NCBI GenBank assembly: GCA_963723235.1
Contig: CAVRPV010000019.1
Location: 84,064-148,063, forward strand
Direction: 5' to 3'
DNA: 64,000 bases
Source of the DNA: an uncultured delta proteobacterium
Lineage (GTDB): Bacteria; Desulfobacterota; WTBG01; CAIYCZ01; CAIRTM01
Made by a program: the position numbers and the translations under genes. Below the pieces are notes generated by a model that was given only the letters and a program-made list of their open reading frames with translations, did no database searches and had not been told where the DNA came from. This document shows, piece by piece, positions 24,520 through 63,895 of the stretch. The stretch's first letter is position 1, and each line of letters begins with the position of its first letter.

Positions 24520-24784
24520 TAAAATCCCTCCATGCCTGCAGAACGCCGGCGGTTCTGCGGGCATCTCCAAACAGAAAACGGGTACGCCGCGTCATGCCGC
24601 GCAGCGTACCCGTTGCACATAGACGCCGCCACAGATCGGCAGACATGCGGTACCTGCCGCACCATACAGAGCAAATAACCGCGCACAGGCATACAAGCAC
24701 CGGGACTATTAAAAACCATGACCGCAAGAACCGCGACGCAGCCGAGAAAACAATCCCTGATGATGAGCCGCCGTGCCGGCCGTA

Positions 24785-25896: not shown

Positions 25897-25899
25897 CCC

Positions 25900-27450: not shown

Positions 27451-27547
27451 CATGAAAACTCTATCAGCAATTGAAACGCGAGGTTCAATATGGCCAGTGC
27501 AGTAGACGCCACAGTGGAAAAACCCGGTGAACCGCATGGCCTGCCAC

Positions 27548-28374
27548 AGGATGCCGGTATCACCATGCAGCGCATGAAATCCTTTGCCGGCCGCGATGAC
27601 CATACCGCTATTGAATCCCTGGCAACGCATGTACGGGCCAACGATTTTTCGATTTTTTACGGTGACAATGAGGCGGTACGCTCTTTGTCGATGACCATAC
27701 CACGAGGCAAAGTCACGGCAATTATCGGCCCCAGCGGATGCGGTAAGAGCACCTTCCTTCGGGCTATCAACCGCATGAATGATCTGATCCCGCGCTGTCG
27801 TGCGGCCGGAGACCTCATCTTTGATGATGAAAATGTTTATGACAAGCGGGTTGATGTCGTACAGCTGCGCCAGCGCATCGGCATGGTGTTTCAAAAACCC
27901 AACCCGTTTCCGAAATCAATCTTTGATAATGTAGCCTACGCCCCGCGCCTGCAGGGTGAGCGCAACCGCGGTCGCCTTGATGATATCGTTGAGCGCAGCC
28001 TGCGCGAAGCCGTGCTGTGGGATGAGGTCAAGGACCGCCTGCACGATAACGCTCTGGGACTGTCCGGCGGCCAGCAGCAGCGCATGTGCCTGGCCCGCGC
28101 ACTGGCGGTCAATCCCGAAATTCTGCTGATGGATGAGCCCACCTCTGCACTTGACCCGCGCTCGACCGCCAGCATCGAGGCGCTGATCGGGCAGCTGCGC
28201 GGCGATTACACCATCATTATCGTTACCCACAACATGCAGCAGGCGGCCCGTGTCTCTGATTTCACCGCGTTCATGTACGAGGGCCTGCTGATAGAATACG
28301 GCAACACGACCAAACTGTTCACTAATCCTGTCAACAAACAAACCGAAGACTATATTACCGGCAGATTCGGATAA
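27548..28374 (+). CDS. pstB: Phosphate ABC transporter ATP-binding protein
   Basis: Walker [10 protein letters not shown], signature LSGGQQQR and Walker [12 protein letters not shown]. Confidence 0.9.
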
Positions 28375-28506
28375 ACAAACCATATGAACATGTCAGCTGT
28401 CGTGAACACAACCGATTTCATCAACCATGCATGCGGCGCGCGCAAAGCCGTGCCGTAAGGCAGCTTCGCCGGCGGACTGCCGTACCGTCGACAGGGGAGT
28501 AACACC

Positions 28507-29178
28507 ATGGGAGTACATTTAATCACGGAGCTTGAACGGCTCAAAAACATGACTACCAAGCTGGCCCACATGGTGAGCCACGACCTTGAGGATGCCATTG
28601 AGGCGCTGCTCAAAGGCGACCGCGATCTGGCTCTTCAGGTAATTACCAACGACGACCTTATTGACAGGCTTGAAATAGATATTGAAGAGGAATGTCTTAA
28701 GGCGCTCGCACTCTTCCAGCCGGTTGCAGGAGATTTACGCTATATTGTCGCGATATTAAAACTCAACAGCGACCTGGAACGCATCGGTGATCTGGCAGTC
28801 AATATTGCCGAGGCCGTTCTTGTCTTAATTGAGAAAAACCTGGGGTACAGGGATCCCTTTGACGTCCGGCAAATGTGCGATAGCGTCCAAAAGATGGTAG
28901 AAAATGTCCTGCAGGCACTGGTTCATTCCCGGACCTCACAGGCCTACGAAGTTCTGGACATGGACAAAGCCGTCAACGAAATGCACCGCGCCAACTACCT
29001 GTTGGTCGAGGAGGCCATTAAGCAACATATGGACCGCGATATCGGTTTCTACCTCTATTATATAAGTATTTCGCGCTACCTTGAGCGCATCGGCGACCAT
29101 ACGAAAAATATTGCTGAAGATATCATCTACACCATGGAAGGCAAAATCGTGCGCCACTCCCCGAAAAACCGCGCATAA
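28507..29178 (+). CDS. phoU: Phosphate signalling complex protein PhoU
   Basis: Two PhoU repeats, each with a ..LERIGD.. segment. Confidence 0.85.
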   Translation: MGVHLITELERLKNMTTKLAHMVSHDLEDAIEALLKGDRDLALQVITNDDLIDRLEIDIEEECLKALALFQPVAGDLRYIVAILKLNSDLERIGDLAVNIAEAVLVLIEKNLGYRDPFDVRQMCDSVQKMVENVLQALVHSRTSQAYEVLDMDKAVNEMHRANYLLVEEAIKQHMDRDIGFYLYYISISRYLERIGDHTKNIAEDIIYTMEGKIVRHSPKNRA

Positions 29179-29295
29179 GATGCAGCGCCATGACGGAGCC
29201 AGGGTTAAAAAGGTTGAAAAAAAAGGCGAAAGGTGGTTTTACATGACAGATCCCTTTGCAGGAGCGAACATCAATACTACGCGGTACGCACTATG

Positions 29296-29973
29296 AAAAA
29301 AACCATCGCCCTGGTTGAAGACGAGCCCGATATTGTCGAACTGCTTGAAATTCATTTGCAAAAAGGCGGGTTTCAGGTCAGAAGCTTCAATAACGGCAAA
29401 AAATTTCTGGAATACCTTTCAAAAAACACGCCGGATGTCGTGATCCTCGACCTGATGCTGCCCGATATCGACGGTCTGGAAATCTGCAAACAGGTGCGCA
29501 CATCCAACTCCAGCGCTGATATCGCCATTATCATGCTGACGGCCAAAAGCGAGGAAATTGATAAAATCCTGGGCCTTGAACTGGGCGCCGATGATTATGT
29601 CACCAAGCCGTTTTCCCCCAAGGAACTGGTAGCCAGGGTCAAAGCGGTACTGCGCCGGCATGCACCGCGGCAGCAGACCCGCACTATCGAAATCGCCGGA
29701 GGCCTGCTGATTGACCTTGAAAAATACACGGTTACACTTAGGGGCGAAAAGATTCAACTGACGTCGACTGAATTTCGCATCCTGCAGCTGCTGGCATCGA
29801 AAAAGGGCTGGGTCTTCAGCCGGGAGAAAATACTTGATCATCTCTGGGGTGATGAAAAAGCGGTGATTGACCGCACAATTGACGTGCATATCAGGCATCT
29901 GCGCGAAAAACTGGGCACGGCGGCCGGCTGCGTTAAAAACCTGCGCGGAGTGGGGTACAAGCTCGAAGAATGA
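29296..29973 (+). CDS. phoB: OmpR-family response regulator PhoB
   Basis: REC domain (MKKTIALVEDEPDIV..DLMLPDIDG) plus a winged-helix output domain, located directly after pstSCAB-phoU. Confidence 0.85.
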   Translation, partial: KKTIALVEDEPDIVELLEIHLQKGGFQVRSFNNGKKFLEYLSKNTPDVVILDLMLPDIDGLEICKQVRTSNSSADIAIIMLTAKSEEIDKILGLELGADDYVTKPFSPKELVARVKAVLRRHAPRQQTRTIEIAGGLLIDLEKYTVTLRGEKIQLTSTEFRILQLLASKKGWVFSREKILDHLWGDEKAVIDRTIDVHIRHLREKLGTAAGCVKNLRGVGYKLEE

Positions 29974-31706
29974 GAAAAACAATTTTTATAAAAATTTTTA
30001 CGGGTTACGTGCTGATCATCGCCCTGATGACCGGCGGTGTTTCGTTTCTGTGCTACCGTATCGTAAAACATCACCACATCGAAACCCTCACGAGTCACCT
30101 TGAAAAGCTGGCCATCGTTACCGGCCTCAGCATACAGGAGCTCTACGCCCGGCGAGAACAAGCCAACCTGGACCGCATGATTAAGAAGCTCGGCCCGGAA
30201 ATCGGCACGAGAATAACGATTATCGACCAGAACGGCACTGTGCTGGCCGATTCTGAAGGCGATCCACTCAGCATGGAAAACCATAGTTCGCGCCAGGAGA
30301 TCACACAGGCCCTGGGCGGACAGATCGGCGTTTCACAGCGCTACAGCACGACACTGAAAAATGCCATGCTCTATGTTGCCGTGCCGCTCACGCAGGCTGG
30401 TTCGATTGATGGCGTCGTGCGCGTGAGTTGTCCTGCGAGCGATATACAGCACTGGCTGAGCCAGCTGAAGGTTCAGATCGTCCAGATAGCCCTGCTGGTT
30501 ATACTGCTGGCGGTTATATGCGCGCTTTTGGTTGCTCGAAAATTATCCGCGCCCATCGCGCAGCTTAGCCGGGCATCGCGCCAAATTGCAGCGGGCGATT
30601 TTAACGTACGCGTGTTTGTCGACAGCCGCGATGAAGTACAGGACTTCGCGGTGAGCTTTAACAACATGACCGAAAAAATCCGCAAACTCTTTGATGAAGT
30701 GTCTCTGCAGCAGGAGCAGTTGAAAAGCATCATACGCTCCCTGCATGAGGGACTTCTGGTGATTGACCATGCCGGCCGTGTGATGATGTGCAATGAAAGC
30801 CTGGCCCGGATGGCGGGCTTTGAGCCGGGCGAAGCCCCGGGAAAGTTTTACTGGGAGCTGCTGCGCGTGGTGCGGCTTGAGGATATTGTTGAAACGTCCC
30901 GGGCATCAGGGGGCAGCAGCCTGCATGAGGTCCGGCTTGAGGGCAAAACGTGTTTGGTAAACGTCTCGCTGATCACGGAACTGAACGCGCTCGTCATGAC
31001 CTTCCTTGACATTTCAGAAACAAAAAATGTTGAACGCATGAAGCGCGACTTCGTCGTCAACGTCTCTCACGAATTGCGCACTCCCCTTACGGCGATCAAG
31101 GGCTTTGTGGAAACCCTGCAGGAGGAATCCGCAAGCGCCGATCATCAGCACTACCTGGGAATAATCCGGCGCCATACCGACCGTTTGATCAACATCGTCA
31201 AAGACCTTATGGTGCTTTCAAGCCTGGAACACGAGCAGGAACTTGAACTGGAAGAGGTCAATATAAAGGGTATTGCCGAACAGGTAAAAAAAATATATGT
31301 CGACCGTTTGAAAGAGAAAAACCTCTACCTGAATATTGAAGCCGAAAACGGCAAGCTGAACGCACGGGTCGATCCGTTCAAGCTGGAGCAGGTTCTCATA
31401 AACCTGATCGACAATGCCATTAAATATACCGAAACCGGCGGCATTACCATGCGGATGGAGCGCTCGCAGTCCGGTCTGGTTATAAGCGTTGCCGATACCG
31501 GCATCGGCATTGCCGCAGCTCATCTGCCCAAGCTGTTTGAACGTTTTTACGTGGTTGACAAATCACGCTCGCGCAAGGTCGGCGGCACCGGCCTGGGACT
31601 CTCCATTGTCAAGCACATTGTCCTGCTGCACAACGGCACCATCACTGTCGCGAGCACGCCCGGCACCGGCACAACCTTCACCATCACACTTCCCCAAAAC
31701 AGCTGA
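29970..31706 (+). CDS. phoR: Sensor histidine kinase PhoR (TM-HAMP-PAS-HisKA-HATPase)
   Basis: HELRTPLTAIKGF H-box and GGTGLGLSIV G-box. Its start overlaps the phoB stop by 4 bp. Confidence 0.85.
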   Translation: MRKTIFIKIFTGYVLIIALMTGGVSFLCYRIVKHHHIETLTSHLEKLAIVTGLSIQELYARREQANLDRMIKKLGPEIGTRITIIDQNGTVLADSEGDPLSMENHSSRQEITQALGGQIGVSQRYSTTLKNAMLYVAVPLTQAGSIDGVVRVSCPASDIQHWLSQLKVQIVQIALLVILLAVICALLVARKLSAPIAQLSRASRQIAAGDFNVRVFVDSRDEVQDFAVSFNNMTEKIRKLFDEVSLQQEQLKSIIRSLHEGLLVIDHAGRVMMCNESLARMAGFEPGEAPGKFYWELLRVVRLEDIVETSRASGGSSLHEVRLEGKTCLVNVSLITELNALVMTFLDISETKNVERMKRDFVVNVSHELRTPLTAIKGFVETLQEESASADHQHYLGIIRRHTDRLINIVKDLMVLSSLEHEQELELEEVNIKGIAEQVKKIYVDRLKEKNLYLNIEAENGKLNARVDPFKLEQVLINLIDNAIKYTETGGITMRMERSQSGLVISVADTGIGIAAAHLPKLFERFYVVDKSRSRKVGGTGLGLSIVKHIVLLHNGTITVASTPGTGTTFTITLPQNS

Positions 31707-49726: not shown

Positions 49727-51086
49727 TTAAAACTTGAAGAGCAGATCGGCTTGCAGGACATGTTCATCATCGCTGCGGCCCACATCCTGCTTACACATAT
49801 AATAGGCGCCTCCAAGCTCAACATTCTTCATCAATCCGTAGGCAGCTTTTACTACATACCCGTTCATATTGGTCTTGCCGCCATAGGCATCAGAATCCGG
49901 GAATATGTCAAGCCATGCATCTTTTTCCAGTTTCTCATAGTACGCTTGGACCTGCCATTGACGCGGCTCTTTAATCTTCTCGTGACCGAACTTGATCCCG
50001 GCGGTATACCCGGTATCTTCTTTAACGCTGCTTGCGGTATTCTTAACATATTCACCATACAGCGCGGCAAACGGCATCAGCGCAAGACCGGTATTTTTGG
50101 TGCCCAGCTCGCCTGATACTACGACCGGCTCGTAGTCATATGCCAGGGTTTTTCCATCCAGCGTGTTTGATTTGCTTGAATAGTCAAGCGTAGAACCCTT
50201 GACATTGCTGGCGTTGTAGTAGGCAAACGCGTTCTTGAAATACGCATTTTGTCCAAGTTTAATGTTGTACCCGGGCTGCAGAAAAAAGAAGCCCGGGTCG
50301 TTTGAACTCTCTTTGATCTCGTCGATAACCCAGTACCCGTTGGTCATGAACAGGTCAACGCTGCCCACTGTGCGATTCATAGACGCTGAAACACCTTGCG
50401 GCCTGATATCACTGTCCCAAATCCAGCCACTGGGCATCCAGAGCGGATTTTCAAACTGACCGCCGACAAGCCGCAGCCACTCAAAGGGCTTGTAGGATGC
50501 ATAGGCATAATCAAGCCGGATGTCAGGTGTTTCAAACGAATTACCAAAAGTCTGGTTGGTGCTGCGCGGATCAGCGTGCCGCTGGCCAGCCCGAAGCCTA
50601 CGTTGAATTTCTCGTTGACCTTCGTGACCATGCCAAGACGAAAACGGTAGCGGCCGCGGTTGCGTTCATCTTCACCGTCGTTGTCTTTGTTGCTATTCTC
50701 GTAGCGCAGCCGAAATCGCCCTTAAACTGGGTGTTTTTGATAAACTCCGGCATCGCCAATGACGAGATGATTTCCTTGTTCGTTTTGTCTTTTTCAGACT
50801 TTTGAACACTCAAAATGAGGTCGCCGTCCTTCTTGGTCAATACACCTTTGTCAACCAGCTTATCCACCAGCATGTCCATCTCGCCCGCCATGACAGGGGC
50901 CTGGCACAAAAGCAGGGCTATCATAACCATGATGCTGATAATTGTCCGTTTCTGCATGCTTTCCTCCTTTATGTTTGCATCAATATACCGGTTTACACAC
51001 CATTCATTTATTGCCTGCCAGCAAGGGCTGCAGAGCACATGTACGCTTTCGTTGTTACTGCCGTTGCCGCACATTCTTGCATGCAT
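49727..51086 (-). CDS. Putative outer-membrane porin, paralogue 1; frameshifted
   Basis: Signal peptide MQKRTIISIMVMIALLLCQAPVMA and N-terminal helical segment (LVDKLVDKGVLTKKDGDLIL). Beta-barrel-like alternating pattern, and a C-terminus ..LQADLLFKF ending in Phe. Confidence 0.55.
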
Positions 51087-51279
51087 TCCTCCTTTCTGTT
51101 TTCTGCGCTGCCGGTTAAGAAGACACTCCGATTACATTAATTTCTTGTAAGATCATACGGGCGCTCTTTTAATATTGAGATAGGCAAGCGGTTATTTTTC
51201 AGTTAAAACATCTCCGGCTTTCTCGCCGCAGATTGTTGAGCAAATCATTTCGGGCGGGGTGTTGTGCGGGCGTTTGCGC

Positions 51280-51314
51280 AAAAAAAAAGAGACCCTGAAG
51301 GGTCTCTTTTTTTC
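51280..51314. terminator. Rho-independent terminator, near-identical to the one at 49669-49707
   Basis: AAGAGACCCTGAAGGGTCTCTT flanked by A9 and T7. Confidence 0.8.
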
Positions 51315-51332
51315 AAAGGCTATGAAGATTTT

Positions 51333-52616
51333 CTAAAAGTTTACATTCAACTCGACCATCACGTTGTCCTCATTGTTATCTGAACCGGTTAGCGGCTTGC
51401 TGTGATAATAATTGGTTCCTATATTAATATTATCCATGAGCCCGTAGGCAACCTTCAGGATATAGGCCTCAACGTTGGTCTGCCCGCCGTACGTATCGGC
51501 ATCCGGGAAGATGTCAAGCCATGCATTGCGCTCCAGCCGGGTGAACTGCAACGCTCCCTGCCACTGGTGTTTCTTTGCAACCTTCTCGTGACCGAACTTG
51601 AAACCGACTGTTTGTCCGCTGTCACCCCTGCTGACGTCCCGGTTGTTGATGTATTCGCCGTACACCGCGGCAAACGGTATCAGCATAAGCCCGGTTTTGT
51701 ATCCGAGCTCGCCAGAGACCACGTACGAGTTGTAGTCATACTTCAGAGTATTGTCCTGATTCCGCGTGTTTGAATCGCTTGAATAGTCAAGCGAAGCGCC
51801 CTTGACATTCGAGAACTGATACACGGTCAGAGCGTTTTTGAAATAAGCTTGCTTGCCAAGGTTGACCTTGTAGCCGGGCTGAATGACCCACATGAGCGGA
51901 TCGTCCGAGATCATTGCGTATTCATCCAGGATCCAGAAGCCGCTGTTCATGAACAGTTCAACGCCGCCCACCGTGCGCTGCATAACCGCAGTAACACCCT
52001 CAGGCCTGATGTCGCTGTCCCACAGCCAGGAATCCCCGGGAAGCCAGAGCGGATTTTGAAACTTGCCGCCTATAAGCTTCAGCCAGTCAAATGGCTTGTA
52101 GGTGGCATAGGCCAGGTCAAGCCGGATTTCGGCCTTGTCGAATGAATTGTTCATGTCCTGCATGCCGCTGCGCGGATTAGCGCCGCCGGTTGCAATGCCG
52201 TAGCCCACATCGACTTTGTCGTTGATTTTCGTGACAGCGTTAAGGCGCAGCCGGTAACGGCCCCGGTTCCGGTCTTGTTCTGAATCGCCCCTGCGGTCGG
52301 TATACTGATAGCGCAGGCGAAAATCGCCTTTAATGGTGGTATTTCTGAACCACGCGGGAATTGCCTCGGCCAGCATAAACGGGGCATCCTTGCCGGTCAT
52401 AAGCGCTTCTTTTGTAGCCGCGATGGTTTCCGTGCGCTCTTTTGCGGCTTCAGCCTTGGTTTCCTTCAAAATGGCGTCGGCATCCTGCTGGTTCAATAGG
52501 CCCTTTTCAACCATCTTTCTTACCAGGATGTCAACTTCACCTGCCGTGGCAGGAGACTGCCACATGAGCAACAGCATCATAATTATTGTCAGTAGTGTTC
52601 CCTTTTTCATCTGCAT
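51333..52616 (-). CDS. Putative outer-membrane porin, paralogue 2 (intact, 427 aa)
   Basis: Signal peptide; LVRKMVEKGLLNQQDADAIL helical N-terminus; C-terminal ..VELNVNF. Confidence 0.55.
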   Translation of the reverse strand: MQMKKGTLLTIIMMLLLMWQSPATAGEVDILVRKMVEKGLLNQQDADAILKETKAEAAKERTETIAATKEALMTGKDAPFMLAEAIPAWFRNTTIKGDFRLRYQYTDRRGDSEQDRNRGRYRLRLNAVTKINDKVDVGYGIATGGANPRSGMQDMNNSFDKAEIRLDLAYATYKPFDWLKLIGGKFQNPLWLPGDSWLWDSDIRPEGVTAVMQRTVGGVELFMNSGFWILDEYAMISDDPLMWVIQPGYKVNLGKQAYFKNALTVYQFSNVKGASLDYSSDSNTRNQDNTLKYDYNSYVVSGELGYKTGLMLIPFAAVYGEYINNRDVSRGDSGQTVGFKFGHEKVAKKHQWQGALQFTRLERNAWLDIFPDADTYGGQTNVEAYILKVAYGLMDNINIGTNYYHSKPLTGSDNNEDNVMVELNVNF

Positions 52617-53177: not shown

Positions 53178-53440
53178 TCAGGTTGCAGACAAAAGCTGTC
53201 CAGTGGCTGATGTGTCATAGCCGCCCATGGCATTGACCTTCTGCCTGAAGGACTCTGAACGCACCACCTGCAGCAGGGCATCAATCGGCCCTGCTGAGGT
53301 GCTCTGTTTGGAAATGATCAGGTCGAAGCGTTCTTTGGCAAGATGCACAAAATCAAGGCCCGGCATTTTTGCCGCGCTCAGAATGCCCATGGCCACATCC
53401 GCTGATCCCCCGAATACGGCAAGACATAGGTGGTCTGCAA
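53178..53440 (-). pseudogene. Orphan fragment: a duplicated 3' end (last ~85 codons) of the TunR-family regulator gene
   Basis: About 250 bp, roughly 85% identical to 57424-57670. Encodes ..MGILSAAKMPGLDFVHLAKERFDLIISKQSTSAGPIDALLQVVRSESF.. with no N-terminal HTH. Confidence 0.6.
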
Positions 53441-53515: not shown

Positions 53516-55463
53516 TCAGAGAATAGATGCAGCCTTCATTGCAGCCTTTTCAGCTTTATGCCGATTCGAGAGATCGGTTTTTTCTGCTTTTTGCTCATCT
53601 GAAAGAGTATTTTTTTCAGATTTTTGCCGAACACTAAGAAGCTTGGCATCATCTTTATCAACGTCACAGTCACCGTCCAGGTCCCATTCCAGGCCGCATC
53701 CGGAAAAACCCATAGCAGCCTTCATTGCAGCCTTTTCGGCTTTATGCCGATTCGAGAGAGCGGTTTTTTCTACTTTTTGCTGAGTTGAGAGAGCAGTCTT
53801 TTCGTTCTTTTGCCGGAGCTTAAGAATACTGGAATCGTATTTATCAACGTCACAGTCACCGTCCAAGTCCCATTCTACATCGCAGATGCACTTGTCAATA
53901 CCCTCGTCGCAGGTTTCACCCGCTGAGCAGGGACCGGCTGCAAACCCGCACACCTCAGCCGTACAGACCGGCGCACCGGTGCAATACAGGCCGTCATCCG
54001 GGCAGTCACTGTCCTTCAGGCACTCTACATACTCCAGGCTGAACTCAACCGTCTGGTTATCGCCGTGGATCACGGTCACATCCTCGGTCTGGCTGCGGTA
54101 GTTTTCGGCAGATACCGTAAGGGTATAGCTTTTTTCATCATTTTCAGGGCCGGAAACCACGCCCCGCTAACATGAATTGGCCTTTGGTGTCGGTACGCGT
54201 TTCATAGCCGCCCATGCCGGTTTTCACCAGCGCATTTGCAATAGGCTTTTGCAGCACCCGCGAGACCACCGTACCCTTGATATTGCCATTGCGCAGATTG
54301 CCGTAAATAACTATCTTCTCGTCATTGAGCAGGCCCCAGCCCGCGTCGGTCTGGCTGTTTCTCCAGTCATATTCTGTTGTGCCTTCAGGCAGCGGATCGA
54401 CCCGGATGGCGGCGACACCGCGGGCTGAAAAGCCGGCATTATGGTCGGTATTGACCTCATTTTTATCATAGGGCCAGGGCTCAGCAGCAGGTGTTGCCGA
54501 GGTTGCCTGACGGTCGGGATAGCCGGGTCTCCACTGCGGGGGCACAGCCCGGAACGGGCCTTCGCCCACGAGCTTGTTCTGGGCGTCCTGGTAGGCAATG
54601 TCGAGATAGGCGCCGTTGGCCTTGTAGGCAAGCAGCAGCTTCAAACCACCAGCAACCGTTATGGTCTGGCCATGAGTCCTGCCGGTGCAGCCCGGCGCGC
54701 TGTAGTCGACCCAGCCGCCATTGGCTGAATCTGCTGTCGCATCATAAAAATATTGCGCCTGCGGATAGGTTCCCTCAATGGGGTAATTAGTGCCGGTGCT
54801 CGTGCGCGCATAGGTATAGCTGTAGCCGTCGGGTGCGGTAACGGTTATGCCGGAGCTGGCAGCGGTCCAGCCGGTTGCCTCAAGCAGCTCCTGCATAATG
54901 AAGCCGGTATACGTGGCATAATAGTCGAAGCCGCTTTCTCCGCCCCGGCTGGTGTTCATGAGCATAAACTGCGCATGGGGCGTCAACATGGATTCAAGCT
55001 CATCAAGGCTCAAAATAATATGCGGCGCCGGCACTTTTGCCGGCGTGTCGAGCGCGTCACCGGGATAGCGAATGGCATTGATTTCCGTTATATTGCTGTA
55101 GGTGTCATTGTCCGAATCAAGGCCCTCAATTGCTTCAAGGGCCGCCAGGCTTCTGCCCGCCGCATTATAATCTGTGCCGAAGGGGTTGAGTGTTTTGGCA
55201 ATATCGCCCGATCCATCATAACCATATACTGTGTGGCAATACTGGCACGCGCTCTCGGTGACCACGGCCCCCGATTTTGTCTTGTACGTATTGCCCTTGT
55301 GGCACGTGGCGCAATCGTCAAGCTTGGTGCCCGCCTTGTCGGGGTAGACCTTCAGAAATTTCGGGGCGTCTTGCTCATCCAGATGATGGTAGGCGCCAAA
55401 GGCCGTGCCTGAGAAAAGCGCAAGCACGGCAATCCCTAAACACAGTGTTCTCAGTCGTCTCAT
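53516..55463 (-). CDS. Secreted multidomain protein: diheme c-type cytochrome, unknown central domain, CarboxypepD_reg-like domain, EGF-like Cys-rich module, and Asp-rich tandem repeats; frameshift near 54150
   Basis: Signal peptide. Two CxxCH motifs (DCATCHK, CQYCH). ..NGNIKGTVVS..TDTKGQFML / SGPENDEKSYTLTVSAENY.. across the shift. CPDDGLYCTGAPVCTAEVCGFAAGPCSAG..; repeats CDVEWDLDGDCDVDK..KAEKAAMKAA x2. Confidence 0.55.
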
Positions 55464-55487
55464 ACAATTCCTCCTGTCCTGTTAAGA

Positions 55488-56997
55488 TTAAAATTCAAGC
55501 TGCAGGCGCGCCATCCACGCCTGCTCAATGTCCTCGTAATAGGCTGCGCCAGAGTCACTATAGCCTAGAAACAGCGGGTCTCCAAAGCGGGTGTAGCTGT
55601 AGTCAAGGGAAAACCTGACCATGGCATTGAGGTACCAGTTGATGGCTGCTGTCAGCGAATTGGCCTCGCGCACGCTCAACCCCTCATTGACAAGAGATTC
55701 ATAGGTGATTTTGTCCGCCTCGAACTGCTGATACATAAATCCAAGGCCCCAGGCACCCCAGGACCCGGTGCGGATATTAAAATCCTTGAGAGGCCGAATT
55801 TTTCCCAGGACACCCCCTTTCAGTTCAGGCCGCTCGCCGGTCAGCATAACCAACAGCCCCGCGTACCACGAGCGCAGGGAAAAATCGAAAAGCTCAGTGT
55901 CGGAGATTTTTACGCCGCCGTAGTCATTCTTGATATACTCAGCCATCAGCGCCACAGGCCCGAGCGTGTAGGCCAGTTCAAGGCCGTAGCGGTTCAGATC
56001 ATCGATTTCTTCGGTCATGTGGAATTTTGCATTTGGCTGGATAGTGTAAAACGTCGTGCGGGCCGGAGTTTTAACCTTTACATTGAAGTCCGATGTGTCG
56101 AGGCGGGCATAGGAGTAGGAGCCGCCAATCTGGAGCGATTTCAGAAAATCAGGGCCCCAGGTGCTGCAGCGGCTTAAACACCAGCCGGCCGGTCACCTGC
56201 TTATCGTCCTTCTGGCTGCGGCGGTTGGCATCGGTGCCGTCACCGTTGAAAACGCCAACGCCATACATGATCGCTTCATCATACAAACTGCCGTGCAGCA
56301 TGAGACCCACATCGCGACCGGGTGTGAGGTAAAAGCCAAAGGAGCGCTCGGTGAAAGCAAGATTTTTATCAGCCGTAAGCTGCTCGAAGCTGAAAGGCTC
56401 CTTGAACTGCCCCATGCGCACCTGCAGCCACGGCACGGCATCATAATTTATATAGGCATCGATCAGGTCGTCGCTGCTTGAGCCCTCCAGCTCGTACTCA
56501 AGGCGGTAGGAAAAATCGCGGTACAGGCGGCCTTCGACAAACAGGCGCGCCCGGCGTATATCAAAGTCATTGCTGATAGGATAGTTGGGCTGAAACATCA
56601 GGTAATCTGTCTGGATGAGCCCGCCGATGCGCATTTCAAAACTTTTGTCCTGCAGGCCGATCTTTAAGCCCTCGTCATAGCTGACCTTGACCTCCCTGGC
56701 CTCTTTTTCAGCCTTCAGCTGCAGGGCCTGTTTGTCTTCTTGATCAAGTGTTGCTTTTATTTCACGGGCCTGCGGCTCAGTAAGCGCGCCATTTGCTTTT
56801 AAGAAATCAAGCAGCTTCTGATCGGCAAGGGGGCCGGCAGAAGCTGCTGCGGGCAGCAGCAGGCACAGGCAGAAAAGAATAGTGCCGTATGTTTTGCTCA
56901 TTTTTCTTTTTCCTACGACGAAAAAAAGCCGGTTCCGTGCCAAAGCAGGGAACCGGCTTGCGCGCAGGCAACCGTATTCTCTCTCCTTCCCCAGCAC
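55488..56997 (-). CDS. Phosphate/anion-selective porin of the OprO/OprP (Porin_O_P) family; frameshift near 56020-56150
   Basis: Signal peptide MSKTYGTILFCLCLLLPAAASA. ..RIGGLIQTDYLMF.., ..DIRRARLFVEGRLYRDFSYRLEYELEG.., and ..LQVRMGQFKEPFSFEQLT... C-terminal ..ARLQLEF. Confidence 0.7.
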
Positions 56998-57234
56998 GGG
57001 AGGCATGGCCTTTTCAGACCATACCCTGTCGGCCGCGCTTCATAGGCTTTAAGCCCGTAGAGCTTCGCGGCTCGGAGATAAAATATCTTTCAGCAGAGCC
57101 CGTTTAGCTCTGCACTATCATTTTATTTAGAATACAGCCCCTTCCTGTGTGCCGCACCGTTCGCGGAATGCCGCATTTTTCTCAGGGGGCCATGTCGATG
57201 ATGCAATTACAGGATATAGAAAACAAAAGACTAT

Positions 57235-57423: not shown

Positions 57424-58342
57424 TTACGTTGCGGCTATGAGCTGACCAGTGGCCGATGTGTCATATCCGCCCATTTTATCGACCTTCATTTTGAAGACTT
57501 CAGACCGGACAACCTGAAGCAGGGCATCAATCGGCCCTGCTGAGATGCTCTGTTTGGGAATGATCAGGTCGAAGCGCTCTTTGGCAAGATACACAAAATC
57601 AAGGCCCAGCATTTTTGCCGCGGTCAGAATGCCCATGGCCGCGTCCGCTGATCCGCCGAAAACAGCAAGGGCCGCCTCATTATGAGTGGAAACCTCGTTC
57701 TCATAGCCGGTTATCTGCCCGGCATCAATGCCCAGCCGCTGCAGCTCGGCATCAAAAAACAGGCGCGTTCCCGAACCGCTCTGGCGGTTGATAATGCGCG
57801 CGCCGGAACCGGGCAATGTCGGCGACGTGTTGCTATGTTCAGAGGATTGCCGCGCTGCACAATCAAGCCCAGGTCGCGATACACAAGATTAATCACCACC
57901 ACTGCCGTGTCCGGCAGATACTTTGCCAGATACGGCACATTGTAGCTGCGGGTTGCCGGGTCGAACAGATGTGCGCAGGCCACATGGCAGATGCCGCTTT
58001 GCCAGGGCAATAAGCCCGCCGGCGCTGCCCACATTGTGAAACCGAAAGACTCAAGTCCGGGAATGCCTGTGGTCAGCTCATGGGACAGCAGCTCCATGCA
58101 GAAATCATGGCTGCCCATGGCCACGATATGGCGTGCCCGGCTGCGCCGCTTTACCCTTTCATCGACACATTTTCTTCAGCGTTTTTTATTATCCAGGCAT
58201 CGATCAGCTGTTTTGGAAATGTCCATTTGCCGGTAATGCGGGTTGCGGGTATTTTTTTATCCTGAATGAGCTTGTACACCTGCTTTTCATTGATATTGAG
58301 ATACTCAGCAAGCTCTTTGGTGTTCAGCATTTCTTTATTCAT
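57424..58342 (-). CDS. TunR-family (COG1910) transcriptional regulator: excisionase-type HTH plus a periplasmic-binding-protein-like oxyanion-binding domain; frameshifted
   Basis: N-terminus MNKEMLNTKELAEYLNINEKQVYKLIQDKKIPATRITGKWTFPKQLIDAWI. The C-terminal PBP-like domain lies in ORFs 57711-58124 and 57424-57816. Confidence 0.65.
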
Positions 58343-58507
58343 TGATGCGTTCCCCCGATGATGGAAAGCGTTGTTTGATCTCCTGCGAAAGCATACCCCA
58401 CATTGCAAAAAAAATAAAGGCTTCTGCAACCTCACGCAGCGCCGCCGCTTCCCGGAACGCAAGCTGTTTTTCTTACAAGAAATTCCAAGTTCCCCGCCCG
58501 AATGTGC

Positions 58508-58558
58508 TATAATGTTTATCGAAGAATGGATTCGGCCACGCCTGTTTGCAAAACAGGC
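58508..58558 (+). promoter_or_regulatory. Sigma-70-like -10 box (TATAAT, 58508-58513) followed by a perfect 19-bp palindrome GCCTGTTTGCAAAACAGGC (58540-58558)
   Basis: Located in the divergent region between the regulator gene and the small ORF / MoSto-like gene. Confidence 0.4.
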
Positions 58559-58647
58559 AGAGATGCCGCTTATTTTAAACGCAATAGTTTCCGGAAGACA
58601 GTGGAAGGAAAAAGAGGCCACCAACCTACTCAAGAAAGGAAAATACC

Positions 58648-58863
58648 ATGGCAGGAATAATGTTTTATCGTGAGCGCACCAAAATCGGCGAAGGCAAAAA
58701 GGCCCCTCGCTATGTAATGGTTGCGGTGAGCGGTGTAGATTTAAAGTTTTACGCCAAGCATGTGCGCAAGCAGGAGCTTGACCAGATCGCGACAGCGGTC
58801 AAGGCCAAACTGGTTGAGCTGAAGGTCGACAAACGAAAAAAGCAGGACAACGTCGAATGCTGA
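58648..58863 (+). CDS. Small basic hypothetical protein (71 aa)
   Basis: Good RBS (AAGGAAAATACCATGG). Sits immediately upstream of the MoSto-like gene. Confidence 0.4.
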   Translation: MAGIMFYRERTKIGEGKKAPRYVMVAVSGVDLKFYAKHVRKQELDQIATAVKAKLVELKVDKRKKQDNVEC

Positions 58864-58873
58864 AGCTGCAATG

Positions 58874-58907
58874 AGGCCCTCGCGCTCAGGCGGAGGGCCT
58901 TTTTTTC
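58874..58907 (+). terminator. Rho-independent terminator or attenuator
   Basis: AGGCCCTC-GCGCTCAGGCG-GAGGGCCT followed by T7. Confidence 0.7.
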
Positions 58908-58919
58908 CAGGGAGAGGTC

Positions 58920-59750
58920 ATGGCACTGGTGCGAGACAAAGACGGCAAGCGGCTGCACGTAAAAAGCAAGCTCATGGGTGAAAGCCTGGTGAGCAAAAAA
59001 TTTATCGACGGGCTGGACACGGCTCCGCAGCGCCGGCTGTTCCCTGACATTAATATCCTGAAGATCGGCGGTCAGTCAATTTGCGACCGGGGCGCCCATG
59101 TGCTGCCCGGCATCATAAAAGAAATTGCGGCCAATAAGAAGAAGCACAAGCTGCTCATCACCACCGGCGGCGGCACACGCAGCCGCCACATCTACGCCAT
59201 CGGCCTTGAGATGGGGATGCCTGTGGGCGTCATCGCCCGGTTCGGCAGCACCATTTCCGAACAAAACGCCCTGCTGGTCTCCATGCTGCTCGGCCCCTGG
59301 GGCGGCATCAAAATCACCCATGCCGATCTTGCTGAAGCTGCCCAACTATTACGTGCAGGGCTGCATCCCGGTCACGGCGGGCATGCCGCCCTATGACCTG
59401 TTTGCCCTGCCGCACGGCAAGAACCGCATCCCCCTGCACCGAACCGACGTGGGCACGCTGCTGCTTGCCGACCTCACCGGCGCCCGCAGCTGCATTTTCA
59501 TAAAAGATGAAGAGGGTCTCTACACCGAGGACCCAAAAAAAAACCGCCGCGCAAAACTTATCCCCGCATAAGCATCTCGGAACTTATAAAAAGGGATCAG
59601 GATGATCTCATTATCGAGCGGCCATGCCTTGAAATCATGCGCAACAGCGAAGTGATCCAGAAAATCCAGATCATTAACGGCATGAAAAAGGGCAATATAA
59701 CCGCAGCACTGAACGGCAAACATGTGGGAACGATTATTTTTAAGGATTGA
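58920..59750 (+). CDS. Molybdenum/tungsten storage protein (MoSto, MosA/MosB-like) homologue of the amino-acid-kinase family; two frameshifts (frame 0, then +1, then 0)
   Basis: KIGGQSICDRG; HKLLITTGGGTRSRHIYAIG; GMPVGVIARFGSTISEQNA; then GMPPYDLFALP..IPLHRTDVGTLLLADL..IFIKDEEGLYTEDPKKN; then ..VIQKIQIINGMKKGNITAALNGKHVGTIIFKD. This matches recalled Azotobacter MosB blocks; the match is from memory, not from a database search. Confidence 0.6.
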
Positions 59751-59825
59751 GCATAAACAAGTTATACAGAAACCCGCGCTGCCAAGAGCATCATGCGGCT
59801 CATAGGGTGAGGAAGCAGAAAACCC

Positions 59826-60912
59826 TTATGCATGCGCTATCATGTGCACGGCCGTTGCCTTGAAATGAAGCAACAACCGAACCGCCCTCTGCAAGGCCCA
59901 TTTCCTCCCGCGAGCGATGGGTAATATGCGTGGAAAGAAAAAATCCGCAGTCGAGCTGCACCTTGAAAAAATGGCCCATGGGAATAAGCCGGGTGATGGT
60001 GCCGGTGAAGCAGTTGCGGGCGCTGGTGCGTCATGGCGGCCGGGCAGGGCAAGGGTCACATTTTCCGGCCGTATGCACAGGATGACCGTCTGCCCGGCAG
60101 CTGCAGTCGCCCACGCATTCAATAAGCTGTATCTGCAACAGCGACGCTCACCGTGCCCTGACCGGCCTGCACAACACGGCCCTTCAGCACGGTGCCCATG
60201 CCGACAAAGGAGGCCACGAATTCATCAGCCGGAAAATTCATAACATCTGCCGGGGGCCCCATCTGCACCAGTCGGCCCTGCTGCATCACGGCCATGGTAT
60301 CGGCAAGCCTGAGCGCCTCTGCCTGATCATGCGATGACATGACCACAGCAATGCCGGTTTCCCGGAATATATGTGTCAAGATCATCGATAAGTGCTTCGC
60401 GCGTGGGCGGGTCAAGGGCTGAAAAAGGCTCATCGAGAAACAGGATTTCAGGCCGGGTGGCAAAGGCCCGGGCAAGGCTTGTGCGCTGGGCCTCGCCGCC
60501 CGAGAGCTTGCGCGCCGCGCGCCGGGCCAGATGGCCGATGCGGAAGCGCTCGAGGTTCTGCTCCACCCGCTGCCGGATCTCCTGCCGGGGCAGGCCCCTG
60601 ATTTTAAGCCCCGAGGCCACATTGTCATACACGGTCGTGTCAAACAGCAGGGGCTCCTGAAACACGGTTGCCGTGCTTCTGCGAAAGTCAAGTATTGAGC
60701 GCCCGGTCGGCTACCGGCTGGGATTTAAACAGAAGCTCGCCTGCCTGCCGCTCAAGCAGGCAGCACAGCGTCAGCAGCAGCGTTGATTTGCCCGAGCCAT
60801 TGGGCCCCACAAGGCACACAATTTCGCCCTGCCGCAGGCAAAACCCCGGCACATCAAGCACCCGGACCCCGCCGCGCCGGACATCGATATTTTTAATTTC
60901 AAGAATGTGGCT
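59826..60912 (-). CDS. tupC: Tungstate/molybdate ABC transporter ATP-binding protein with a C-terminal TOBE-like domain; frameshifted
   Basis: VGPNGSGKSTLL, LSGGEAQR and ILFLDEPFSALD. The post-ATPase ..FVGMGTVLKGRVVQAGQGTVSVAVAD.. / ..VILCIRPENVTLA is a TOBE-like fold. Confidence 0.7.
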
Positions 60913-60921
60913 GCTCGCTGT

Positions 60922-61621
60922 TCATCGGGGCCTGTCATGCTGCTGGATATGGGTAAGGATATAATTGACGGCAAAGGTCAGGACGAGCAGAATGATGCCA
61001 AGGGCAATGGCGATATCGAAATTGCCCTTGCTGGTTTCCATGACCGTGGCCGTGGTGAGCACGCGGGTATAGCCCTTGATATTGCCGCCCACCATGATCG
61101 ATGCGCCCACTTCGGAAATGACGCCGCCAAAGCCGGCCATAACAGCCGCAAGCAGGGGCAGGCGCGCTTCGCGCATAAGCAGCCAGATCATCTGCAGCCG
61201 CGTGGCCCCCAGCGCCAGTATCTGCAGCCGCAGGTTGCGGGGCAGATTCTGAATGGCCGCAACCGTAATGCCCGCCACAATGGGCGTTGCGATAACAGCC
61301 TGCGCCAGGATGATGGCCCCGGGCGTGTAGAGCATTTCAAGAAAACCCAGGGGCCCGTTGCGCCACAGGAAAATCGTCACAAACAGGCCCACCACAACGG
61401 GCGGCAGGCCCATGCCCGTGTTGATAAGGCTCACCACCAGATTCTTGCCCCGGAAGTCCGCCAGGGCAAGACAGATGCCGGCGCTCATGCCGATAAACAG
61501 GCTTACAAGCGTTGCCGCACCCGACACCTGCAGCGACAGAAGCGTTATGCTCCACGTCTCCGGGTCAAGCGTGACACAGCAGCACAACAGCCTGCCAGAT
61601 GCCTTCAAAAATCAGATCCAT
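60922..61621 (-). CDS. tupB: Tungstate/molybdate ABC transporter permease
   Basis: CysT/ModB-type permease with ..IMVGGNIKGYTRVLTTA.. Confidence 0.7.
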
Positions 61622-61814
61622 AGCTATAACAATGCCTTGCCGCATATTTCTCACGTATTGATCTGCGAGCTCGCATCATGCGGATTGACATCTGCCATGC
61701 TCAAGCACGAAGCCCCCGCTGTTCGGGCGGGGCTTTAGTGTTGAAATATTTTAAAAAAGATTGCAACTCATTGTGCCAGATACTAAGCACACCCGTCGAT
61801 ACGCCTGCCTCTTG

Positions 61815-62655
61815 TTACTTCCCGAGGCTTTCAACCGTTTTGCCCGCATCGGGGGTGAACAGGGCTGCGCCGAACTTTTCAACGCCGAAGGTGCCGATCA
61901 GCTTCTGCGTGGCCGGGGCGACCATAAAATCGGCAAATGCCTTTGCGCCCGCCGCGTTCACTTTGGGCCATTTCTGAGGGCTGACTTCAATAACATGGTA
62001 CATGTTCAGAAGGCTCTTATCGCCCTGGCACAGAACGGCAGGCCCAGATTTTTCTGCAGGGAAAGATAGGTTCCCCGGTCGGCAAGGGTATAGCCCTTTT
62101 TTCTCCGCGGCTACTGCCAGGGTCTGGCCCATGCCGAGGCCCGTCTGCTGATACCAGCTCTGGCCGTCCGGCTTTACCCCTGCGGCCTCCCAGATCTTCT
62201 TTTCTTTTGAATGCGTGCCTGAATTATCCCCCCTGGATATAAACAGGGCACTTTTTTCAGCAATCAGTTTAAAAGCCTCGGATGCGGTTTTTGCAGCCTT
62301 TACGCCCGCAGGGTCATCGGCCGGGCCGATGATGATGAAATCATTGTGCATCACAAGCTGGCGCCGCGATCCGTTGCCCTCGTCCATGAATTTCTTCTCA
62401 TCAGCAGGCGAGTGCACCAGCAGCACATCCGCCTCGCCCTTGGCGCCCATGGCAATGGCCTGGCCGGAGCCGACCGCTATGGTCTTCACAAAATAGCCGC
62501 GTCTGTTTTTCAAACACCGGCAGCAGCGCATCCAGAAGCCCCGAGTCCTGCGTGCTCGTCGTGGTGGCAAGAATGATATTTTTCGTTTCAGCAGCCGGGC
62601 TGTAGGCAGGCGCTGCCAGCAGAAAACCTATGCCCAGAAGCAGGGCGGCAGTCAT
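61815..62655 (-). CDS. tupA: Tungstate ABC transporter substrate-binding protein (TupA/WtpA-type); frameshift near 62490
   Basis: Signal peptide MTAALLLGIGFLLAAPAYS and the ILATTTSTQDSGLLD signature. Confidence 0.7.
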
Positions 62656-62950
62656 GGTGTACGCGTGCTTCTTCTCATGGTCATCTCCTTCTGTTCGGTT
62701 TGTCTGCACATGTTTCTTTACTGCCTCACGCGTAAAAACTCTTTTTTGATACGGAGCATATCATCTGACGGGGCGGCGGTCTGCCGCCGGCCTGCAATAG
62801 CCCCGTTTGCAATACAGCCATTGTATTACCCCTATCGGTTTGCGGCACTAAGGTCACCGTGTCAATAACAAGTTGTCCTGAAGTGAAAAACCCGCCATGA
62901 GCAACACCCGCTTCTCAGCGTGGAGCAACGATACATAAAAAAATATACGC

Positions 62951-63010
62951 GGTCAAGCCAATTGGTTACTATTGGTCATTTAAAGTAATTTTTGGTTCTA
63001 TTTATTCTAC
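62951..63010 (+). promoter_or_regulatory. Conserved AT-rich element E1, in the divergent tupA / phoU-like promoter region
   Basis: GTCAAGCCAATTGGTTACTATTGGTCATTTAAAGTAATTTTTGGTTCTATTTATTCTAC; compare with E2. Confidence 0.5.
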
Positions 63011-63208
63011 TCAAAAATAACAATTACCCGACATAGGCAGTACCGGCACAGGCTGCCGGGCAACAGGAAGCTTTTTAAGTCTTGATTTGCATACGATAAA
63101 AATGCTAAAAGTCTAATGCTAACTTACGTAAATACTTTAACAAGATTTAGCAGGCAGACAACTCCGCACATTGCATAACCGCACAGCCAACCCAGGGGGA
63201 ACCGGCGC

Positions 63209-63895
63209 ATGGATGGTCATATTTACAAGTCATTCGACAAAGAGCTTCATGATTTAAAAGAACGGCTTCTTGTGGTGGGCGGCTGCGTGGAACGCTCAAT
63301 CCGGGACGCAGTCCGGGCGCTTGAGGAGCGCAATTCCGAAGTCGCCCAGCGCATCATTGACGACGATGATACGGTTGACACCCAGGAGCTTGAAATCGAC
63401 GAGTTCTGCCTGCGCCTGCTTGCCCTGCGGCAGCCTGCGGCCCGCGACCTGCGCATCATCACGACAGCGATGAAGGTCAACTATGACCTTGAGCGCATCG
63501 GCGACATGGCCGTGAACATCGCCGAGCGGGTGCTGGAGCTCAACAAGGAACCCCAGCTCAAGCCCTACATAACCCTGCCGCAGATGGCCCTGTCCGTTCA
63601 GCAGATGCTGCGGGACAGCCTCAATGCCTTCATAAACGAAGACCCTGTCGCTGCCCGTGCCGTGATAAACGAAGACGAAAAGGTCGACCACGCCCTGAAA
63701 CAGATTTACCATGAGCTGGTAAACTACATGGCAAGTGACTACGGTTACGTGCCGCGGGCCACGCGGCTTCTGTTCATTTCCAAATACCTTGAGCGCATCG
63801 CCGACCATGCCGTCAACGTCGCCGAACTGGTGGTGTTCATGGTTGAGGGAAAAATCCTGCGGCACCACAAGCACCATGAGGCAGAAAAAGAATGA
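63209..63895 (+). CDS. PhoU-family protein (second paralogue)
   Basis: Two PhoU repeats with ..DLERIGDMAVNIAERV.. and ..YLERIADHAVNVAE.. Confidence 0.8.
   Translation: MDGHIYKSFDKELHDLKERLLVVGGCVERSIRDAVRALEERNSEVAQRIIDDDDTVDTQELEIDEFCLRLLALRQPAARDLRIITTAMKVNYDLERIGDMAVNIAERVLELNKEPQLKPYITLPQMALSVQQMLRDSLNAFINEDPVAARAVINEDEKVDHALKQIYHELVNYMASDYGYVPRATRLLFISKYLERIADHAVNVAELVVFMVEGKILRHHKHHEAEKE

Follow-up and report, generated by a model that had tools for sequence, protein, structure and literature searches.

The closest described relative of the system reported here is the molybdenum storage protein (MoSto) of Azotobacter vinelandii, in which two paralogous subunits encoded by adjacent genes, MosA (alpha) and MosB (beta), assemble into an (alpha-beta)3 heterohexamer. 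No cage other than MoSto is known to use ATP to store a metal as polyoxometalate, and work on it has been confined to a single aerobe; a homo-hexamer of the UMP kinase type is its presumed ancestral state. In PMC6448029, a MoSto-type cage is described as using ATP and holding ~100 metal atoms, and MoSto as having "no known homologs". Here we describe a tungstate-associated region within a 64,000-nucleotide stretch of DNA from an uncultured delta proteobacterium (contig CAVRPV010000019.1, positions 84,064 to 148,063; hereafter, the window), which encodes one MoSto-like protein and a small basic protein of 71 amino acids (aa) next to a putative tungstate importer of the TupABC type. The MoSto-like protein has the fold of MoSto and shares with it the motifs KIGGQS, GGGTR, RTDxG and KDExGLYTxDPK as well as the Met of GMPPY. 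In contrast to MoSto, the system has one gene in place of two, does not keep the cluster-ligand positions of the alpha subunit, and occurs in strict anaerobes (Syntrophales, Syntrophomonas, Spirochaetota) in a tungstate-transport neighbourhood, whereas MoSto stands in a diazotroph context.

Syntrophs and other strict anaerobes depend on formate dehydrogenases and aldehyde oxidoreductases that require tungsten. The system closest in proposed role consists of the Tub/Mop molbindins of E. limosum, which are built on TOBE domains (PMC11980592). According to that article, Tub binds 8 oxyanions per hexamer passively and was, in 2025, the first tungsten store to be characterised whose physiological function is defined. 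The pair in the window shares with Tub/Mop the proposed cytoplasmic buffering of TupABC-delivered tungstate in a tungstoenzyme-using anaerobe, and its small member is of like size (~70 aa), but the folds are unrelated and the small protein has neither a TOBE domain nor any Pfam match.

The MoSto-like gene encodes a member of the MoSto family

After repair of two frameshifts (see below), the MoSto-like protein matched A. vinelandii MosB in the PDB (entries 2OGX, 4F6T, 6RKD and 7ZSE) at 43% identity (E = 1.7e-64, 221 bits) and MosA at 34-36% identity (E = 4.9e-44, 154 bits), whereas the best UMP kinase in the PDB was matched with E = 7e-6 and at most 28 bits. The sequence blocks that a preliminary description of the window had quoted as MoSto-like are all present in the repaired protein: KIGGQS, HKLLITTGGGTRSRHIY, GMPPY, IPLHRTDVGTLLLA, IFIKDEEGLYTEDPK and NGMKKGNITAALNGKHVGTII. 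A model of the monomer made with AlphaFold2 (AF2; predicted local distance difference test, pLDDT, 69; predicted template modelling score, pTM, 0.73) was then compared with the PDB using Foldseek. The top 15 matches were all MoSto chains, with E between 1e-22 and 6e-21, and the best of them, 2OGX_B (E = 1e-22), aligned with a template modelling (TM) score of 0.74-0.76 and 43% identity. UMP kinases appeared at E = 7e-12, ~11 orders of magnitude below the MoSto chains.

The gene could in principle encode the housekeeping UMP kinase PyrH or an ordinary enzyme of the AA-kinase family, as Pfam recognises only the generic AA_kinase domain and NCBI names several relatives 'uridine kinase'. NCBIfam holds no MoSto model, and its PyrH models score far below their cutoffs: pyrH_arch (TIGR02076) reached 54.3 bits against 158, and pyrH_bact (TIGR02075) 34.2 bits against 243.9. 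Together with the PDB matches and the fold search, these scores rule out PyrH, to which we would give virtually no chance, and the grouping with PyrH that the preliminary description had envisaged as counterevidence was not found. The MoSto-like protein is a true member of the MoSto family. With the hexameric UMP kinases it shares the fold and, in all likelihood, a homo-hexameric state, but the sequence similarity is marginal and lies under the family cutoffs. No pyrH gene was found within the 64-kb window. Public data contain about 2,500 proteins of the MoSto family, which makes the earlier view of MoSto as rare outside diazotrophs misleading.

One MoSto-like gene is paired with a small upstream gene

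A genome scan with an intact 276-aa homologue (P0001, 97% identical) returned 28 loci, which two ENA contigs brought to a total of 30 related loci. Their gene neighbourhoods were read by tblastn with defined queries in combination with called genes; longest-open reading frame (ORF) calling gave antisense artefacts. The loci come from Thermodesulfobacteriota (Syntrophales, Syntrophaceae, Smithellaceae), Spirochaetota, Syntrophomonas (Firmicutes) and, in one case, Nitrospirota. In 29 of the 30, tblastn revealed one MoSto-like gene within +/-10 kb and the small ORF directly upstream of it. The sole exception was the Nitrospirota locus, which carries two tandem paralogues and in which the small ORF was not found. 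All three loci reached via the small protein had a 276-aa AA_kinase gene immediately downstream. Within the 64-kb window, phmmer searches of all six frames with MosA and MosB found no second Mos paralogue, only three fragments of the MoSto-like gene.

Loci of the classical type were organised differently. A metagenome scan with a profile of two-subunit (classical MosB-type) proteins yielded 80 loci, 62 of which carry tandem paralogues; these were all of the testable ones (62/62), the other 18 ending at a contig edge just past the first gene. The small ORF was found in none of the 80. In a neighbour-joining tree with 200 bootstraps, the proteins encoded by a single gene plus small ORF formed one clade (bootstrap 92.5), hereafter the single-subunit clade.

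The small ORF had previously been listed as an incidental, divergent reading frame. It is indeed divergent from the regulator gene described below, but it shares its orientation with the MoSto-like gene and is the steadiest partner of the single-subunit clade. Its 71-aa product is basic (isoelectric point, pI, 9.8), and both proteins of the pair are strongly basic (pI 9.7-9.8), which suits polyanion binding. A profile search gathered 2,348 relatives of the small protein, a number similar to that of the MoSto-family matches; the 120 relatives listed all lack a Pfam domain, and nearly all are annotated as hypothetical protein. The C-terminal Cys is not conserved. The AF2 model, of moderate confidence (pLDDT 66), predicts a beta-hairpin, a helix and a strand.

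Two candidate identities for the small protein were rejected. Membership of a known family was dismissed, since Pfam, NCBIfam and PHROGs gave no match and Foldseek found nothing in the PDB below E = 0.6. A degenerate second Mos subunit was discarded on the basis of hhalign comparisons with MoSto profiles, which gave probabilities of <1%.

Ratios of nonsynonymous to synonymous substitution rates (dN/dS) were 0.08-0.09 for the MoSto-like gene against three relatives, including its out-of-frame middle segment, and 0.08-0.11 for the small ORF. Purifying selection on both genes is strong, and the two constitute a two-gene unit that is intact and under selection. Between them lies a GC-rich hairpin with a minimum free energy of -24.7 kcal/mol (z = -2.5; 0 of 200 shuffles as stable), whose stem is kept in three close relatives (L004, L003 and L001) with changes on both arms. 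These features suggest that the hairpin and the U7 run behind it act as a partial, terminator- or attenuator-like element that sets different expression of the two products.

The single subunit keeps the beta-type ATP site

An alignment with MosA and MosB showed that the single-subunit clade keeps KIGGQS, with the Lys at beta-42, the glycine-rich loop GGGTR, RTDxG and KDExGLYTxDPK (as VKDEDGLYT). The Met of its GMPPY motif occupies the position of beta-Met149 (numbering verified), where MosA has Phe. Both features of the beta-type ATP/molybdate site, the KIGG Lys and the GMPPY Met, are kept throughout the clade. In addition, its conserved N-terminal segment, RLHVKSKLMGESLVS, resembles the N-terminal arm of the alpha subunit, IKHVISPLARQTL. 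Brunle et al. (2019) reportedly concluded that the beta-ATP is the catalytic site, that beta-Met149 is a gate and that the alpha arm locks over the beta-ATP. The residue pattern of the clade fits one subunit that would unite the pump site of beta with an alpha-like arm. As PDB titles indicate, MoSto researchers have made the variants beta-K42S (6RIS), alpha-H156A (6H6W) and beta-L131H, and the titles of 2OGX and 7ZSE record that MoSto holds polyoxotungstates. The titles of 6RIS and 6H6W corroborate the importance given to beta-Lys42 and alpha-His156.

The pair adjoins tungstate uptake genes in independent loci

In the window, the MoSto-like gene converges with a putative tupCBA operon (59826-62709, minus strand), as had been proposed. 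For TupA, the sole NCBIfam match was the TupA model NF041772 (E = 6.9e-74, 249 bits, under the cutoff of 400); the protein carries the TTTS motif, and 'ILATTTSTQDSG' is seen in the three-frame translation. The tupB product matched NF038017 (ABC_perm1) with 270 bits against a cutoff of 100 and the TupB model NF041773 with 159 bits, under its cutoff of 320. In the tupC product, the Walker A motif and the ATP-binding cassette (ABC) signature are spread over several frames, and the best NCBIfam match was the tungstate protein WtpC, with 202 bits and also under cutoff.

The proposed neighbourhood of a single-subunit MoSto homologue and a TupA-type importer was borne out, and the linkage recurs in many relatives. 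At least 12 independent loci (window, L006, 7, 9, 10, 11, 12, 15, 17, 30, L112/L113 and P0385 contigs) have genes for a TaoR-like regulator and for TupA, TupB and TupC beside the pair. One of them, L112, repeats the convergent layout of the window. In seven Syntrophaceae loci, all genes lie on one strand in the order regulator-tupA'-tupA-tupB-tupC-c2-small-MoStoL (MoStoL, MoSto-like gene), with gaps of ~6-20 bp. Judging from the related records, the lineage looks like Syntrophales-type syntrophs and not, as the preliminary description had it, like classical sulfate reducers.

Other genes were found beside the pair in particular relatives. In 18 of the 30 related loci (for example, L006:8929-9681, L014:7584-8321, L016:7945-8682 and L001:4276-5019), but not in the window, the gene immediately ahead of the small ORF encodes a conserved ~245-aa protein without a Pfam domain. 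This protein starts with (M)xVxxGxDDTD, contains IPYTSHNS, GSDPGLC and HGGTxxGIIGA, and shows a weak, in-register resemblance to TiaS, a tRNA-modifying enzyme, in the N-terminal kinase domain that uses ATP; the L016 copy matched the NCBIfam TiaS model with E = 4e-9, and its top PDB matches were TiaS (E ~1). This TiaS-like protein may belong to the module as its third component, although neither the window nor the Syntrophomonas loci have it, so that it is not essential to the unit.

In two of the closest relatives (L001:1108-9528 and L002:1530-9536, 86-90% identity), the pair is preceded not by tupABC but by genes for a TonB-dependent receptor, TonB, a FecCD-type ABC importer and its Peripla_BP_2 binding protein, and a transporter of the major facilitator superfamily (MFS). 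Such a neighbourhood hints at metallophore-mediated metal uptake feeding the pair.

Three Syntrophomonas loci (L019, L026 and L028) carry on the opposite strand a gene for a 406-411-aa protein assigned by BLAST to the AA_kinase family, ~0.9-6.6 kb downstream of the MoSto-like gene. It is directly convergent in L026 and L028 and lies ~4.5 kb further on, past four ORFs, in L019; conserved genes for proteins of ~310 and ~430 aa follow it. This arrangement probably represents an aspartokinase-type operon of amino-acid biosynthesis unrelated to the module.

A TaoR-family regulator and a riboswitch lie beside the pair

The regulator gene was described earlier as encoding a COG1910/TunR protein with an excisionase-type helix-turn-helix and a periplasmic-binding-protein domain. 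TunR, as reported by Kazakov et al. (2013), binds DNA through a XerC/XerD-like domain and has ModE-like TOBE domains as its sensor. In the repaired regulator, Pfam found HTH_17 (E = 5.5e-13) and PBP_like (PF12727, E = 7.2e-53) and neither an integrase-like nor a TOBE domain. The domain content given earlier thus stands, but the TunR label does not: the architecture of HTH_17 plus PBP_like is that of TaoR, as stated in PMC11980592, which cites Rajeev et al. 2019. The regulator is assigned to the TaoR family because it has these two domains and lacks those of TunR, with which it shares only the proposed role, control of tungsten/molybdenum (W/Mo) transport in Deltaproteobacteria-type anaerobes. 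Compared with TaoR of Desulfovibrio vulgaris, the regulator has the same two domains and here adjoins tupABC, but no aor gene was found in the window and the regulator gene is frameshifted in the assembly. Regulator homologues 37-40% identical adjoin tupA in relatives.

A perfect palindrome at 58540, placed ~100 bp ahead of the small ORF, has a related counterpart, CCGTTTGCAATACAG, upstream of tupA at 62803-62817; the element TTGCA(A/T)AA recurs at 58399 and 63167. Together, these sites are weak candidates for operators of the TaoR-like regulator. A 231-bp fragment on the minus strand (53194-53423) matches the regulator gene at its 3' end with 87% identity and codes for its last ~80 residues. 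The fragment is a remnant of a second regulator copy and points to a past duplication or rearrangement near the island.

Further along the same strand, cmscan detected a molybdenum cofactor (Moco) riboswitch (RF01055) that the preliminary description had missed. It matched the full model with 67.4 bits against a gathering threshold of 36 (E = 4.5e-14), and the columns of the P3 hairpin are deleted in its alignment. Moco riboswitches without P3 correlate with the use of a tungsten cofactor (Regulski et al., PMC2408646). The riboswitch lies immediately 5' of an OprO/P-type porin gene, whose 285-aa N-terminal ORF matched Pfam Porin_O_P with E = 2.5e-20 and whose C-terminal part is encoded in the ORF at 55488-56018. 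It is probable that this protein is a porin for tungstate/molybdate oxyanions under riboswitch control.

Two co-directional genes follow the porin gene. The first (54144-55463) encodes a secreted 439-aa protein with two CxxCH motifs, and the second (53516-54160) a 214-aa protein with repeated DLDGDCDVDK motifs. Riboswitch, porin gene and the two following genes (53516-57006, minus strand) may form a riboswitch-controlled envelope operon. Just to its left, on the same strand, lie two more paralogous genes for outer-membrane porin-like proteins (49727-52616), one intact (51333-52616, 427 aa) and the other split (49727-50437 and 50598-51086).

Layout of the region and integrity of its genes

The ORF listing and three-frame translation placed all the genes listed in the preliminary description at the coordinates given there (Table 1).

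Table 1 Features of the tungstate-associated region in the window.
Feature	Coordinates	Strand	Remarks
OprO/P-type porin gene (phosphate-selective-porin family)	55488-57006	-	split by frameshifts
Moco/tungsten-cofactor riboswitch aptamer, RF01055, without P3 stem	56967-57089	-	detected by cmscan
TaoR-family regulator gene	57424-58342	-	HTH_17 + PBP_like; at least 2 frameshifts
Candidate operator, perfect 19-bp palindrome GCCTGTTTGCAAAACAGGC	58540-58558		regulator/small-ORF intergenic region
Small ORF, 71-aa basic protein	58648-58863	+	intact
GC-rich hairpin + U7	58873-58908	+	between small ORF and MoSto-like gene
MoSto-like gene, 276 aa, AA-kinase fold	58920-59750	+	frames 2, 3, 2
tupC-like ABC ATPase gene	59826-60930	-	at least 3 frameshifts
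tupB-like ABC permease gene, 228 aa	60922-61608	-	intact
TupA-type tungstate-binding periplasmic protein gene	61815-62709	-	at least 3 frameshifts
Second phoU paralogue, 228 aa	63209-63895	+	intact

Comparison with three intact relatives showed exactly two 1-bp indels in the MoSto-like gene, a +1 at ~59331 and a -1 at ~59566, which together restore the reading frame. Two frameshifts had been noted in this gene before, at ~59345 and ~59565; they stand in number, but the region carries about ten in all, spread over 55.5-62.7 kb in the porin, regulator, MoSto-like, tupC and tupA genes. If these frameshifts were real, the island would be decaying and the system non-functional in the present organism. 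Their clustering speaks for decay, given that the pstSCAB-phoU-phoBR operon (23680-31706) reads without frameshifts, as do the position of the two indels of the MoSto-like gene outside long homopolymers and the 231-bp regulator remnant, a sign of past rearrangement. However, a codon-usage scan detected same-strand frame switches between short coding segments at 8.8-12, 17.9-19.4 and 39.8-45.4 kb as well, and the uneven frameshift density in the window is consistent with context-dependent long-read errors. Furthermore, the nearest genome relatives are metagenome-assembled genomes (MAGs) from long-read projects and carry similar 1-bp errors; in the locus L003, for instance, an A-run within the small ORF is short by 1 bp. 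In the window, frameshifts spare the small ORF, tupB and phoU, and the low dN/dS extends over the entire MoSto-like gene across its compensating +1 and -1 indels. Because dN/dS is ~0.08 and intact relatives exist, assembly error is favoured over decay: the frameshifts in the island are very probably errors of assembly, most likely of long-read origin, and we consider a decaying island very unlikely.

The phoU gene at the right end of the region scored 223.9 bits against TIGR02135 (cutoff 130.25). The canonical pst-pho operon holds another phoU (28507-29178), so that the gene at 63209 is a genuine second copy, as had been recognised. Its inclusion in the module did not hold up: a search of the 30 related loci detected no PhoU in any of them, and we therefore do not count it as part of the conserved module.

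A putative tungstate store and its alternatives

We read the region as an island for the acquisition and buffering of tungstate, and possibly molybdate, in which the store is a homo-oligomeric, ATP-driven relative of MoSto with a small basic accessory protein, and we assign this reading a probability of roughly 0.5. In the proposed mechanism, the P3-less riboswitch of the tungsten-cofactor class would control the OprO/P-type outer-membrane porin, and the TaoR-family regulator stands beside the TupABC importer. The single subunit would form a homo-oligomer, most likely a hexamer as in UMP kinases and MoSto, in which each subunit plays the roles of both MosA and MosB by combining the beta-type ATP site (KIGG Lys, GMPPY Met) with the alpha-like N-terminal arm motif RLHVKSKLMGESL. 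Hydrolysis of ATP would drive tungstate or molybdate into the internal cavity, where it would be held as polyoxometalate. The small basic protein could be an obligatory accessory, such as a cap, an assembly factor or a hand-off factor, and a leaky terminator hairpin may let it be made in excess. The data show membership of the MoSto family, the single-gene architecture, the conserved small partner, the linkage to TaoR and Tup genes, the riboswitch and purifying selection, whereas how the subunits oligomerise, that ATP drives oxyanion deposition, that tungsten is preferred and what the small protein does are inferred. A homo-oligomeric, ATP-driven cage that stores tungsten is thus a plausible hypothesis.

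Several observations weigh against this reading. The AF2 monomer model of the MoSto-like protein is of moderate confidence only (pLDDT 69). At the positions of alpha-Glu129, alpha-His140 and alpha-His156, presumably the polyoxomolybdate cluster ligands, where the MosA sequence has the expected E and H residues, the single-subunit clade has Thr/Gly, Tyr and Asp/Gly; only the equivalent of His130 is kept among the alpha positions compared. Any clusters would therefore be held differently, by another internal chemistry. Because the deep nodes of the neighbour-joining tree are unresolved, orthology of the clade to MosB is not established. Moreover, both Nitrospirota paralogues score higher against MosB than against MosA, so that a "MosB-like" score may just reflect a divergent MosA; the clade may be orthologous to MosB, or it may be older than the subunit duplication. 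Adjacency to TaoR or Tup genes is confined to about one third of the loci. In about two thirds, the 7-10 kb around the pair hold no W/Mo genes; the loci of Syntrophomonas, Spirochaetota and part of the Syntrophales belong to this group and show no Moco riboswitch nearby either. No Moco riboswitch was found near the pair in seven diverse relatives, the palindrome motif was not found at equivalent places in other loci, and the closest relatives (L001-L004) carry TonB-dependent receptor, FecCD and MFS genes in place of tupABC. Finally, there is the possibility, considered above, that the frameshifts are real inactivating mutations.

The absence of the alpha-type cluster ligands from a protein that keeps its ATP-site motifs speaks for a different function, namely that of an ATP-dependent enzyme or chaperone that processes oxyanions and is not a bulk store. 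Such a protein might activate tungstate and hand it over for cofactor insertion, or discriminate between tungsten and molybdenum, in concert with the small protein and often with the TiaS-like protein, whose gene precedes the small ORF in 18 of the 30 loci, an arrangement that points to an ATP-dependent pathway of several steps. Linkage to tupABC in one operon is compatible with either function. We nevertheless hold a processing role to be unlikely: all characterised members of the family are storage cages, the protein aligns with MosB over its full length at 43% identity, the regions of the cage wall included, and the TiaS-like gene is missing from the window and the Syntrophomonas loci.

The many loci without W/Mo genes, and the seven relatives without a nearby Moco riboswitch, would also be expected if the pair handled another substrate, such as vanadate, phosphate or arsenate, or phosphorylated a small molecule, with the proximity of tupABC being only partly meaningful. 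The kinase-family fold accommodates many substrates, and the window holds a PhoU paralogue and an OprO/P-type porin nearby. Against this stands the recurrence of TaoR-like and TupABC genes, the only functional neighbourhood that returns across independent lineages, in at least 12 loci and in some of them as one compact cluster on a single strand. In addition, the porin lies under a Moco/tungsten-cofactor riboswitch, and the MoSto-like sequence is far nearer to MoSto than to any kinase. A substrate other than tungsten or molybdenum thus appears distinctly unlikely, and we retain the tungstate-buffering island with a MoSto-type store as the preferred reading.

Implications for tungsten use in anaerobes

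In line with the preliminary description, which had called the system undescribed for this lineage, the literature that could be searched described neither a MoSto homologue with one subunit nor its small partner. The fold and the family are known; what is new is the architecture of one subunit plus a partner, the hosts and the wiring to tungstate uptake. The single-subunit form of MoSto is widespread, with >2,000 sequences, and is linked to tungstate uptake time and again. It offers a simpler system in which to ask how a kinase fold became an oxyanion pump, and it provides a testable function for two families now labelled 'uridine kinase' and 'hypothetical protein'.

More broadly, and tentatively, we propose that strictly anaerobic syntrophs (Syntrophales, Syntrophomonas and some Spirochaetota) may possess an unrecognised cage-type store, homo-oligomeric and ATP-driven, made of one MoSto-like subunit and a 7-8 kDa basic partner. 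Fed by TupABC, it would hold polyoxotungstate for tungsten-dependent formate dehydrogenases and aldehyde oxidoreductases, and it may represent the ancestral, pre-duplication form of MoSto. The pair is a candidate high-capacity tungsten reservoir in methanogenic consortia and may reveal a new way for anaerobes to hoard tungsten.

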